This document shows, in pieces, positions 29,780 to 35,401 of a stretch of 64,000 bases of DNA; the stretch's first letter is position 1, and each line of letters begins with the position of its first letter. The stretch lies in contig JAZRHM010000029.1 of NCBI GenBank assembly GCA_045644765.1, forward strand, positions 4,972-68,971, given 5' to 3'. This DNA comes from Alphaproteobacteria bacterium (GTDB taxonomy: Bacteria; Pseudomonadota; Alphaproteobacteria; RF32; CAG-239). Both the position numbers and the translations under genes were made by a program. A model generated the notes under the pieces. The model was not told the origin of the DNA, did not search any database, and worked only from the letters and a program-made list of their open reading frames with translations.

Positions 29780-32700
29780 TTATCGGGTAGTCTGTATTGG
29801 ATTGGCACCCCTATTAATTACCATTTGATTTTGAGCGGTTTGAGAGTTTTGAGCTCTATGAACTTCTCCGTCTTTATCACGAATAAGACCATATTTTTCC
29901 ATGATTGTAGCCGATCTTTCTTCATGATTTGCCATGAATTTAGTTATGGCTTTTTGTTCAGATTCCGAAAAAGTTTCGCCACTATCAACTCTTGCTTTAA
30001 GGTCGCTATATATATCATCATTCATTAAGAGTGATTTAACTTCCATAACGCCTTTTGCACTAGTATTATCACCTAAGAGTGCTTTTGCGTCATTAAGATA
30101 ATTTTGCTGATTGAATCCATATGTAGTATTTTCAGCTGATACATTGACCTTTATGCTATATGCTGCACCATCTCCCGTAACTCTGACATCATCACCCAGT
30201 TTGACTAAGTCACCCTTGTGATTATATGTCATATGTTGTTCTTGTAGATTTTCTCTATGTTGTTGCATAAATTGTTTTTCTGCAAGGCCGAGAGGTTTGT
30301 TTTCTTGTTCTCTACTAAGTAAATCTTTGTACACAATGTCTTGAGCTTCAATTGTTGAAAGTCTTCCGTTTTCACAGTTCATATGAAACTGTCCTTTGCT
30401 ATCAAAACTATAACTTACACCATGGTCACAATTCATTGTTTTGGTAGTTGCACAAACACGAGTAAGATTATTTTCACTGTCATGCGTTATACCATGTCGA
30501 GCAAGATCTTTTTCGTGTTGTTGCATGAATGCTTGTTCACCTGCCGACAAATCTTCTTTATTTGTTAAGTTTTGATAAAGTTCATCACGAGCAATAAGTG
30601 TTTGCAACTCTGCAACAGTATTTGCTTCTCTGGTAGCCGAAAACATTTGATTTTGGTAATTTTCTCTTGTTACAGGCTCTCTTTCCGGTAATAAACTTTG
30701 TGCTTGTGCTTTCATATCTGCATCTAAGGTAAATTGTTGCTCAAAAACAACATTTCCATTTGCATCTTTAATCGAATATAAAGAACGACCATCGCCGTTT
30801 TCATTTATTTGGAAAGTGTTAGATGCTTTGTAAGAACTCAAATCAATATTTTCATTTGGTGATTGATTATCAACATGAGCCGGAACAGGTTGCTCTTGAA
30901 CAGGTTGCTGTAATGATGAAACAGTCTGAGATGTCAGATTGCTTAATTCTTCTTTTGCAGGTAAGTCATATTTTGCATCTAAGTCAGTATACAGTTTATC
31001 ATGCAATGCTTGTAAGTTTGCTATTTGCGGAGCTTGTTCCTCGTTAAATACGACACCGTTTGCGGCTTGTTGTGTTACATCTTGTAATACGGCATCGTAA
31101 TACATTAATAAGCTCAAATCTTTTACAGCTTGCGGATCGTTACCGACTGTTTGTTTTGCAACATCTTCAAATGTTTGTAAACTGATACCTTCAATATGCA
31201 TATTATTATTTTCATTAAAGCTTACAATGTTGTTATTGGTTAACGTTTCAGCCGGAGAAGAATCGCGTCCATGAATATAATCAAGCATTTGATCTGTATA
31301 ATTGTCGAGAGTTTCTTGTGGCGGCAAGTTATATTTTGCGCTTAACTCTTGATAATATGTATCATAACTTGTTTTTAATTGTGCTAATCTTGCTTCTTGC
31401 ATATCGCTTAATTCTACACCATTTGCTATTTGTTGTTCAACATTTCTTATTTCGGCATTTTGAAGTAATAAACTGCTTACATCAGCAAGGGCTTCTTGGT
31501 TTTCAGTTCCGACCATTTGTGATGCAGGACCTACGAACAGGTCTATATCCATACCTTCGGGAATGAAAACTGTATCATTTGAAATGTTGTACCCTTGAGA
31601 TTGATTTTCATGTTGAATGTCAAAAAGAGGTAAGCTGGCATGAGCTGTTAAATCTTGTTGTGATGGTAAGTTATATTTTTCACTAAACGTATTATATGAA
31701 TTATTATATGATTCTTTTATCTGTAATAATGCAGCAGCTTGTTCATCATTTAACTCTAAACCATTTGCTAATTGCTGATCAACATTTTGCAATATTGCGT
31801 TTTGATACAGTAAAAAGCTAACTTCTTCGACTGCCTGAGGATTGTTGTCTCCTACAAGCTGTTTGGCGGTGTTCTCAAATGTTTCAGCTGTCATGCCTTC
31901 CGGAACAAAAACTCGGTCATTGCTAACTTGATAGCCCTGTATTTCATAATTTACAGATGAACCATCTTGGTTTGATTCTAAACCAGAACTGCCATTGTTT
32001 TGTGTGTTATTCTCTGTATTTGTTTGTGTACTGGTTTTAGTTGTTTCAAAAGGTCTGTCGCCTTCATAATTTCCTCTATCGGAATAGTCATTCATCAAAT
32101 TGCCAAGTTTTGCAAATTGTTCATTGGTCATATTCGGGATTTGTGCTTCATGCATGCGAGTGTTTTGAAAATCAATACCCAGTGCTTCTGAAACATATTT
32201 AGGCGATTGTTCCATAGCCATAGCAAGCTTATAAGCAAACTCTTCTTTGCTTTCGATACCTTCAGGGAGTTTGATTTCGCCGCTATCAATTCTGGAATAT
32301 AAACTATCAACGTTTTCTTTTCCTAAAAATTGATTGGCTCGATTATCCCAAAATTGGGTGTCTTTTGCAGAAACTTCAACGGTGGCAGAGCCTTGTTCTT
32401 GAGCCTCTTGCCTTTCAATATCATTGAGTATTTGTGTGATAATAGAATCATTTCCTTGCAGTGGAACAGAATCATTTCCTTGCAGTGGAACTGAATCGCT
32501 TGCTTGCAGTGGAACAGAATCACTTGCTTGCAGTGGAACAGAATCACTTGCTTGCAGTGGAACAGAATCGCTTGCTTGCAGTGGAACAGAATCACTTGCT
32601 TGCAGTGGAACAGAATCGCTTGCTTGCAGTGGAACAGAATCGCTTGCTTGCAGTGGAACTGAATCGCTTGCTTGCAGTGGAACAGAATCACTTGCTTGCA

Positions 32701-35401: not shown

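Follow-up and report, generated by a model that had tools for sequence, protein, structure and literature searches.

A 64,000-nucleotide (nt) stretch of an Alphaproteobacteria bacterium contig (JAZRHM010000029.1, positions 4,972 to 68,971; hereafter, the window) carries on its minus strand, at 29780..35401, a gene for a protein of 1873 amino acids (aa). We propose, with a probability of roughly 0.4, that this protein is anchored in the inner membrane with its N-terminus in and its C-terminus out, and that it holds a modular arm in the envelope; it would be a lineage-restricted, rapidly diversifying envelope protein. An earlier reading of the same DNA, made from the letters alone (hereafter, the original prediction), had described a single minus-strand open reading frame (ORF) of about 1873 aa with a mixed repeat architecture, and had taken its product for a candidate secreted or membrane-inserting effector. 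The ORF is indeed intact from its ATG, a public NCBI protein record is identical and also 1873 aa long, and the ORF of the closest ortholog is intact too. Because the ORF, whose disruption the original prediction had named as evidence against itself, is intact in two species, and the ratio of nonsynonymous to synonymous substitution rates (dN/dS) is 0.33 overall and 0.12 in a conserved domain, we conclude that the gene is real and under selection. Coordinates of all features are given in Table 1.

The evidence for a membrane anchor comes from the charge, composition, and hydropathy of the protein and of its relatives. Each 100 aa of residues 1-600 carries a net charge of -4 to -16, and the region upstream of the Gly/Ala-rich hydrophobic block contains 12.1% Glu; its overall composition (Lys 9.4%, KRELI residues 40.6%, NQST residues 22%) is like that of cytoplasmic proteins encoded in the window. 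Downstream of the block, the corresponding values are 3.9%, 26.9%, and 32.7%, and Lys is lower downstream of the block in 17 of 18 relatives. The block itself stands out by its Gly plus Ala content (26-27 per 100 aa at residues 701-900 versus 6-18 elsewhere in the protein) and contains hydrophobic segments at residues 706-727, 762-785, and 832-867, in agreement with the original prediction of a Gly/Ala-rich block with several hydrophobic helices. No hydrophobic segment precedes residue ~706 in the hydropathy profile, and no classical signal peptide is present, again as predicted. Among the helices, H4 (residues ~833-867) has the highest mean hydrophobicity (Eisenberg <H> 0.57-0.64) and a low hydrophobic moment, while the central G-P or G-G of H1 is kept across the family alignment. 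Net charge amounts to -52 before the basic island and to -85 after the block. Family-wide, net charge is positive in the N-terminal flank and in each loop between helices (+1 to +10), and it is -5 to -11 over the 60 aa that follow the last helix in most members. A resident membrane anchor would explain this pattern no less well than a pore-forming hairpin. The likeness to translocator or pore-forming hairpins that had been suggested for these helices was not borne out, as no translocator or pore-former family was matched. Since the family as a whole has kept this hydrophobic block of Gly/Ala helices, membrane association is probably a real, selected feature.

The part of the protein that defines the family lies beyond the block. 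It is a domain of ~110 aa with the motif FW.NR...F(L/I)G...LY.RI..GEIKLPEGIE.KEE(F/Y)AYK, and it is 55-66% identical to that of the 1873-aa protein in every aligned homolog. AlphaFold2 (AF2) was run on two conserved units, this domain and the C-terminal module. The model of the conserved domain contains six helices (predicted local distance difference test score (pLDDT), 83; predicted template modelling score (pTM), 0.77). The dN/dS of 0.12 is the strongest constraint among the regions that have diverged between the two orthologs and, because of this constraint and of the identity among aligned relatives, the domain is a likely partner-binding element. The idea that it is a diverged copy of the C-terminal module was ruled out (hhalign probability, 0.9%).

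The C-terminal part is built of repeated modules. Three repeats of ~105 aa had been noticed originally, and they are real: pairwise alignment places them at residues 1155-1251, 1269-1365, and 1404-1487, with 39-54% identity and E values of 1e-16 to 1e-31. Their number was underestimated, since a profile made from these three repeats revealed three further, diverged copies, giving six modules of ~100 aa in total. In the AF2 model of module copy 6, three helices lie between two beta-hairpins (pLDDT, 87.6; pTM, 0.79). Across the family, one to six copies of this module type are found. Relative P0004 has a single one, and relative P0002, which is 41% identical to the 1873-aa protein and aligns with its residues 321-1196 and 1501-1850, has three versus six. 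Given the three modules of P0002 and the alignment gap at 1196-1501, copies 1-3 are thus a lineage-specific expansion.

From these sequence features, we infer the following arrangement. The acidic, Lys/Glu-rich N-terminal ~660 residues would remain cytoplasmic, and the basic island with its Gly/Ala-rich helices (residues ~661-868) would associate with the inner membrane, which the last and most hydrophobic helix (residues ~833-867) would span in an N-in/C-out orientation. An acidic, proline-containing spacer, lengthened here by 14 octapeptides, would keep the remainder of the protein off the membrane. The highly conserved six-helix "FWDNR" domain would then bind a putative conserved partner, and the six modules, each of three helices and a beta-hairpin, would reach into the periplasm or envelope as an extended arm poor in Lys and Arg. 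As spacer length and module number differ between lineages, the reach of the arm may be tuned.

In favor of an inner-membrane anchor, charge is positive-inside family-wide, and on the Eisenberg scale the last helix looks like a transmembrane segment; its crude insertion energy, however, is marginal (+3.7 versus -1.7 to +4.1 for the controls). Several points weigh against the arrangement. The helices are marginal, with a crude Hessa sum of +3.7 to +5.4 kcal/mol versus -1.7 to +4.1 for transmembrane helices of neighboring transporters; they might instead be buried inside a soluble form of the protein, or be tuned for export. With an internal anchor at position ~840, some 1000 residues would then have to be exported, which is demanding. 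Finally, the arguments from composition, charge, and calcium-loop-like motifs are soft.

The spacer between the block and the conserved domain is acidic and contains proline; it is 47-321 aa long across the family and, in some relatives, contains calcium-loop-like motifs of the form DxDxDG(I/V)PD. In the window, it harbors the octapeptide array, for which Tandem Repeats Finder (TRF) reports a 24-nt unit, 14.0 copies, and 94% matches. The array is therefore present as originally predicted, though with 14 rather than 15 complete units, the 15th octapeptide beyond them being degenerate. A comparison of orthologs for repeat-number variation had been proposed as a check; in such a comparison, the closest ortholog, L001, has no tandem repeat, and a short, unrelated Ser/Thr/Asn/Gln-rich stretch occupies the position of the array. 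Because the octapeptides are absent from an ortholog that is 82% identical, the array is, as far as the two sequences indicate, a recent strain-level addition to a variable spacer rather than part of the functional core.

The N-terminal region is conserved only in part. Residues 1-320 have a counterpart only in the closest ortholog, residues ~321-700 are shared with P0002 (BLAST against homologs), and a juxtamembrane part, residues ~520-700, is common to the whole family (block alignment). The original description of this region as acidic and Glu/Lys-rich holds for charge and composition. A coiled character was also claimed and finds no support in a crude, uncalibrated scan of the N-terminal 700 aa for heptad periodicity (4 windows above threshold versus 1.2 +/- 2.6 in shuffles), and we rejected a coiled-coil N-terminus. 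Two short duplications of weak significance (E ~0.01) were observed inside this region: over 32 aa, residues 8-39 and 138-169 are 41% identical, and N(I/L)SEEDK(P/A)K(V/I)LE is present both at residues 308-319 and at residues 455-466.

Homology searches placed the protein in a small family. A search with the whole protein returned only the protein itself, its candidate list being saturated, and a separate search with the N-terminal 870 aa, subject to the same saturation, found nothing. With the C-terminal half as query, 12 homologs of 926-1512 aa were obtained, none of which has a Pfam domain. An exhaustive search with a profile of residues 1005-1125 against 1.84 billion representatives yielded 28 proteins, ~25 of them genuine, and two additional family loci came from human-gut metagenomes. 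The sole source name among the relatives is "hypothetical protein [Alphaproteobacteria bacterium]". The order of parts is the same throughout: a variable acidic N-terminal region, a conserved juxtamembrane region, the Gly/Ala-rich hydrophobic block, a variable spacer, the conserved domain, and variable C-terminal modules, of which the homolog clusters have zero to six. We conclude that the protein is the founding member of a very small orphan family, restricted to uncultured gut Alphaproteobacteria.

Comparisons with databases were uniformly negative. The best Pfam match of the protein, Cornifin, scored 14 bits (cut-off, 34.8) and was located on the octapeptides; the membrane block had no Pfam match. 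There were no NCBIfam matches, and PHROGs gave only E values of at least 0.05. Among 29 family members, no Pfam match fell below E 6e-4 and none of the Pfam families recurred in a second member. Searches of PDB by sequence and by profile, including those with three conserved units, were empty, and a fold search of the conserved parts against PDB and BFVD found no match (BFVD E values of at least 0.66). Clear homology of all parts to a known cytoplasmic protein, which was to speak against the original prediction, was accordingly not seen in Pfam, NCBIfam, PHROGs, or PDB. A literature search on this gut lineage and its genome label turned up nothing on the protein. The two domains without recognizable relatives are what is new here; giant, fast-evolving, modular envelope proteins are of a familiar kind.

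The C-terminal ends of family members recur in a few forms. In P0002, P0003, P0006, P0007, P0010-P0012, P0014, P0017, P0019, P0022, and P0026, a Ser/Thr/Asn/Gln-rich tail is followed by ...GGR, GGRQ, KGR, or QGR in the last five residues; another subset of relatives ends in aromatic residues (...DYYY or ...WDY), and the 1873-aa protein itself ends in ...IQTTR. These tails may be a sorting or processing signal. At one locus, L009, a 1126-aa orphan (11751-15131) lies two genes downstream of the gene for P0009, after a major facilitator superfamily (MFS) transporter gene. Its hydrophobic-block region is like that of P0019 and P0030 (E 1e-4). As this orphan has the block but not the conserved domain, the hydrophobic block seems to be a reusable module.

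The evolution of the gene was followed by comparison with L001, an "Alphaproteobacteria bacterium" metagenome-assembled genome (MAG) in which a genome scan found the one syntenic ortholog, 1795 aa long and 82% identical, with flanking genes identical in kind on either side. Whole-gene dN/dS between the two was 0.33, versus 0.02-0.13 for nine flanking genes; the gene evolves 3-15 times faster than its neighbors. Synonymous divergence (dS) along the gene is mosaic: ~0 at residues 1151-1262, 0.03 at residues 1521-1650, and 0.5-1.3 at residues 281-520, 701-870, and 1381-1520. Likewise, in 300-nt windows, nucleotide identity ranges from 0.71 to 1.00 inside the gene versus 0.89-0.97 in an adjacent 25-29 kb stretch. 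When 29780-35401 of the window was compared with 10001-15388 of L001, identity was 99-100% in windows starting at 30477 and 31527-31677, and 71-75% in windows starting at 30777-30927 and 34077-34227. Mosaic divergence of this kind suggests recombination between lineages. Elsewhere in the same comparison, a stretch at ~24630-25230, between parC and hflX, has no alignable counterpart at the ortholog locus (identity, 0.03-0.3) and so constitutes an indel specific to the strain; the 158-aa ORF in it (24808-25284) has no Pfam match.

The fast, mosaic evolution and the variation of repeats between strains are compatible with a protein that is exposed or of surface type. Together with the conserved helix block, they agree with the membrane-associated or surface-type protein envisaged in the original prediction; the further statement that such a mix is typical of intracellular bacteria found no support, as the relatives come from "Alphaproteobacteria bacterium" MAGs and human-gut metagenome contigs and the genes of the window (among them parC, hflX, corC, chpT, trmFO, htpG, thrS, and an arginine decarboxylase/antiporter pair) are those of an ordinary chromosome. 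The effector proposed originally would be exported without a Sec signal through a type IV secretion system (T4SS), a type I secretion system (T1SS), or another route. Its moderately hydrophobic Gly/Ala helices would escape the inner membrane of the producer and insert into a host, protist, or bacterial target membrane, and its repeat modules would act in or on the target. Such a role would account for the missing signal peptide and for helix hydrophobicity at or below the lower edge of that of resident transmembrane helices; marginally hydrophobic helices are also described in membrane effectors that undergo translocation. In addition, the protein is very acidic and Cys-poor and has tandem repeats, its evolution is fast and mosaic, the ...GGR, KGR, or QGR tails of many relatives could be an export signal, and one relative has a gene for a VirD4/TraG-type coupling protein 8 kb off on its contig. 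That single coupling-protein gene is, however, cut off from the relative by housekeeping genes. In the seven contexts examined (the window locus and the loci of six relatives), no secretion system, phage, toxin, chaperone, adaptor, or immunity gene adjoins the family gene, and neither the protein nor its relatives matched effector, translocator, RTX, or toxin families. More specifically, the RTX-repeat family HemolysinCabind was absent from the protein and its relatives (Pfam), no pair of ATP-binding cassette and membrane fusion protein genes lies beside the gene in the window, there is no C-terminal toxin domain, and the seven contexts contain no VgrG, PAAR, Rhs, CdiB, or immunity gene such as would mark a polymorphic toxin, a type VI secretion system, or contact-dependent inhibition. 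The positive-inside pattern of all loops suits a resident anchor, nothing suggests an intracellular lifestyle, and the identity of the conserved domain across aligned relatives from several metagenome samples is more simply explained by a conserved bacterial partner. We therefore regard an effector as unlikely. A bolder version would make the whole family an unrecognized class of effectors that uncultured gut Alphaproteobacteria export, without a Sec signal and possibly directed by the conserved ...GGR tail, and that insert into membranes; it is in our view improbable. Here, the Gly/Ala helices would enter a host, protist, or competitor membrane, and the six-helix domain and modules would engage a conserved target.

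The protein could instead be wholly cytoplasmic, a membrane-peripheral scaffold such as a polar or cell-cycle organizer of the kind common in Alphaproteobacteria, with the Gly/Ala helices forming re-entrant hairpins or a monotopic anchor and both acidic halves inside. All loops within the block are basic, H1 has the conserved central G-P or G-G that is seen in hairpin anchors, the helices are marginally hydrophobic, and the gene lies two genes from chpT both in the window and at the ortholog locus. The chpT linkage is lost at the other loci, though, and no CtrA-box-like site was found upstream, the motif being at or below chance level across the window. The sharp shift in composition after the block to a Lys-poor, Asn/Gln/Ser/Thr-rich sequence, the acidic proline-containing spacer and calcium-loop-like motifs beyond it, and the last helix of ~30 residues, uniformly hydrophobic and with a low moment, likewise count against this reading, and we doubt that a scaffold of this kind is the answer. 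A remnant of a prophage or mobile element (tape-measure-like), or a polymorphic toxin with its immunity gene, is very improbable. The long helical protein with central Gly-rich hydrophobic segments superficially resembles tape-measure proteins, and a small ORF of unassigned role adjoins the gene, but PHROGs gave no match, 2.9 million viral contigs contained no relative, and BFVD had no matching fold. The neighbors, corC, chpT, and genes for an antiporter and an arginine decarboxylase, are housekeeping genes, the GC content of the gene (0.34-0.38) is typical of the window (0.31-0.38), and the C-terminus consists of repeated helical modules, not of a toxin domain. The adjoining 168-aa ORF is convergent; it is conserved in the closest ortholog only and not beside relatives at three other loci. 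An origin in a phage or toxin cassette is effectively refuted by the PHROGs, viral-contig, BFVD, and context results.

The gene appears to be transcribed on its own. Its ATG is preceded by a Shine-Dalgarno sequence, and an alternative in-frame TTG start at 35473, 72 nt upstream of the ATG, would extend the product to 1897 aa. The flanking terminators of the original prediction were both recovered, upstream (35526-35557) and downstream (29732-29770); the latter is common to the gene and the convergent 168-aa ORF. As terminators lie on either side, the gene constitutes its own, monocistronic transcription unit. Because the upstream hairpin divides the CorC/CNNM gene from the target, a separate promoter within 35402-35525 is implied. 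The predicted promoter itself is putative: in a consensus scan, promoter-like sites occurred at chance level (27 found versus 24.9 expected), and the match closest to the start overlaps the start codon itself.

Table 1. Features of the 1873-aa protein and its gene (nucleotide positions refer to the window; H1-H4, hydrophobic helices).
Feature	Residues	Position	Strand	Basis
Complete coding sequence, 1873 aa + stop		29780..35401	-	ORF list, NCBI identical protein, intact syntenic ortholog
Terminator-like hairpin ending upstream CorC/CNNM gene		35526..35557	-	Terminator scan and sequence
Shine-Dalgarno GGAG, 7 nt before ATG at 35401		35409..35412	-	Direct sequence reading
Strong intrinsic terminator directly 3' of stop codon		29732..29770	-	-23 kcal/mol, z -8.7, 0/200 shuffles as stable
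Acidic, Glu/Lys-rich N-terminal region	1-660	33422..35401	-	Composition, BLAST versus homologs, block alignment
Basic island with Gly/Ala-rich hydrophobic helices	661-868	32798..33421	-	Hydropathy, loop charge, family alignment
H1, central G-S-P	701-727			Hydropathy
H2	762-785			Hydropathy
H3, short	797-812			Hydropathy
H4, most transmembrane-like; putative membrane anchor	833-867			Hydropathy
Octapeptide array, 14 complete tandem units (D/N/A)SVPLQ(A/G/V)(S/N)	873-984	32450..32785	-	TRF, unit-by-unit listing
Family-defining conserved domain (FWDNRA..FLG...LYSRIDSGEIKLPEGIESKEEFAYKLAMAMEQSP...)	1005-1125	32027..32389	-	Homolog identity, profile search, AF2, dN/dS
Module copy 1 (first of the ~105-aa repeats predicted originally)	1149-1256	31634..31957	-	Pairwise and hidden Markov model (HMM) iteration
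Module copy 2	1263-1370	31292..31615	-	Pairwise and HMM iteration
Module copy 3	1387-1491	30929..31243	-	Pairwise and HMM iteration
Module copy 4, diverged short form	1561-1649	30455..30721	-	HMM iteration; pairwise E 4e-6 to copy 5
Module copy 5, diverged short form	1652-1735	30197..30448	-	Pairwise and HMM iteration
Module copy 6, family-typical	1746-1850	29852..30166	-	Pairwise E 1e-6 to copy 1; HMM 92 bits

At the six other loci, too, the family gene lies among housekeeping genes, with neighbors that differ between loci; a distant member lies downstream of parC...hfq-hflX, which is like the position of the gene near parC and hflX in the window. A standalone gene with terminators, housekeeping contexts, a recurring parC/hflX position, and the lack of relatives in viral contigs argue for vertical inheritance rather than a mobile cassette. 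The convergent 168-aa ORF was considered as a conserved partner gene and rejected, since it is retained only in the closest ortholog and the six relatives have gene contexts unlike one another. One sub-clade has, directly after the family gene and in the same orientation, a gene for an orphan protein of 560-734 aa (L002 14169-16301, L003 4807-7011, L007 4410-6170, and L011 13511-15193); the three of these that were compared share 32-38% mutual identity, and the window has no such gene. The first ~90 residues of the L002 orphan resemble the N-terminus of P0007 (E 2e-7). On L011, positions 1-1705 encode the VirD4/TraG-type T4SS coupling protein and then a pentapeptide-repeat protein, 8 kb from the gene for P0007, with housekeeping genes between.

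Three other loci of the window were recorded. At 204-6519 on the plus strand lie seven tandem paralogous ORFs of 150-289 aa, 27-55% identical and internally repetitive, most of which begin with MKTISEQLAMFNE...; the three longest have no Pfam match, and the array looks like a locally amplified orphan gene family. A lone ORF at 55388-56707 on the minus strand, near a glycosyltransferase gene and a tRNA-Phe gene, contains a phage terminase large-subunit domain (Terminase_3, E 5e-16) and may be a remnant of a prophage or gene-transfer agent. At 26983-29088 on the plus strand lie genes for a pyruvoyl-dependent arginine decarboxylase and, after it, an amino-acid antiporter; this pair resembles arginine/agmatine acid-resistance modules such as AaxB/AaxC, which would be in keeping with a gut habitat.

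Of known systems, PodJ, also of Alphaproteobacteria, would be similar in inferred topology, with a large helical cytoplasmic N-terminus, an internal anchor in place of a signal peptide, a low-complexity or proline spacer, and one or more folded domains beyond the membrane. TolA and TonB offer a looser likeness, again in inferred topology only, as anchored proteins that span the periplasm. There is no sequence or profile similarity to any of them, and Sel1/TPR, peptidoglycan-binding, TonB_C, and TolA_C domains are absent from the 1873-aa protein (Pfam), which differs further in that several marginal Gly/Ala helices take the place of a single clear transmembrane helix and in that its C-terminal part, built of repeats, is much longer. 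Giant surface proteins made of three-helix-bundle repeats (staphylococcal Ebh-type, protein A-type modules, and Fap1 NR-alpha) are also among the closest known systems. With effectors of intracellular Alphaproteobacteria and Chlamydiae, both translocated membrane proteins and acidic tandem-repeat proteins (Inc proteins, Ehrlichia tandem repeat proteins (TRPs), and T4SS substrates), the protein shares the lack of a Sec signal, moderately hydrophobic helices, acidic strain-variable tandem repeats, fast evolution, and a standalone gene. It differs from them in having no homology to them and no secretion-system or chaperone context, in its source in gut MAGs without intracellular signs, in a block that begins ~700 residues in and is flanked by basic loops, and in a tandem repeat that is missing in the nearest ortholog. 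Phage tape-measure proteins are likewise long and mostly helical with central Gly-rich hydrophobic segments, whereas the protein is negative in PHROGs, viral contigs, and BFVD and is encoded in a chromosomal housekeeping context.

Large orphan repeat proteins are common, and the finding is thus of moderate rather than high import. If the protein is an effector, it would represent an unrecognized interaction mechanism of gut Alphaproteobacteria. If it is anchored in the inner membrane with its arm in the envelope, as we propose, it would be part of a lineage-specific envelope structure in poorly known, uncultured gut Alphaproteobacteria, and it would contribute two new domain folds, whose confident models are without structural neighbors. 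Fast mosaic evolution and a strain-variable spacer suggest selection by phages, the host, or competitors, and exposure to such selection would make the protein a candidate strain marker or receptor.

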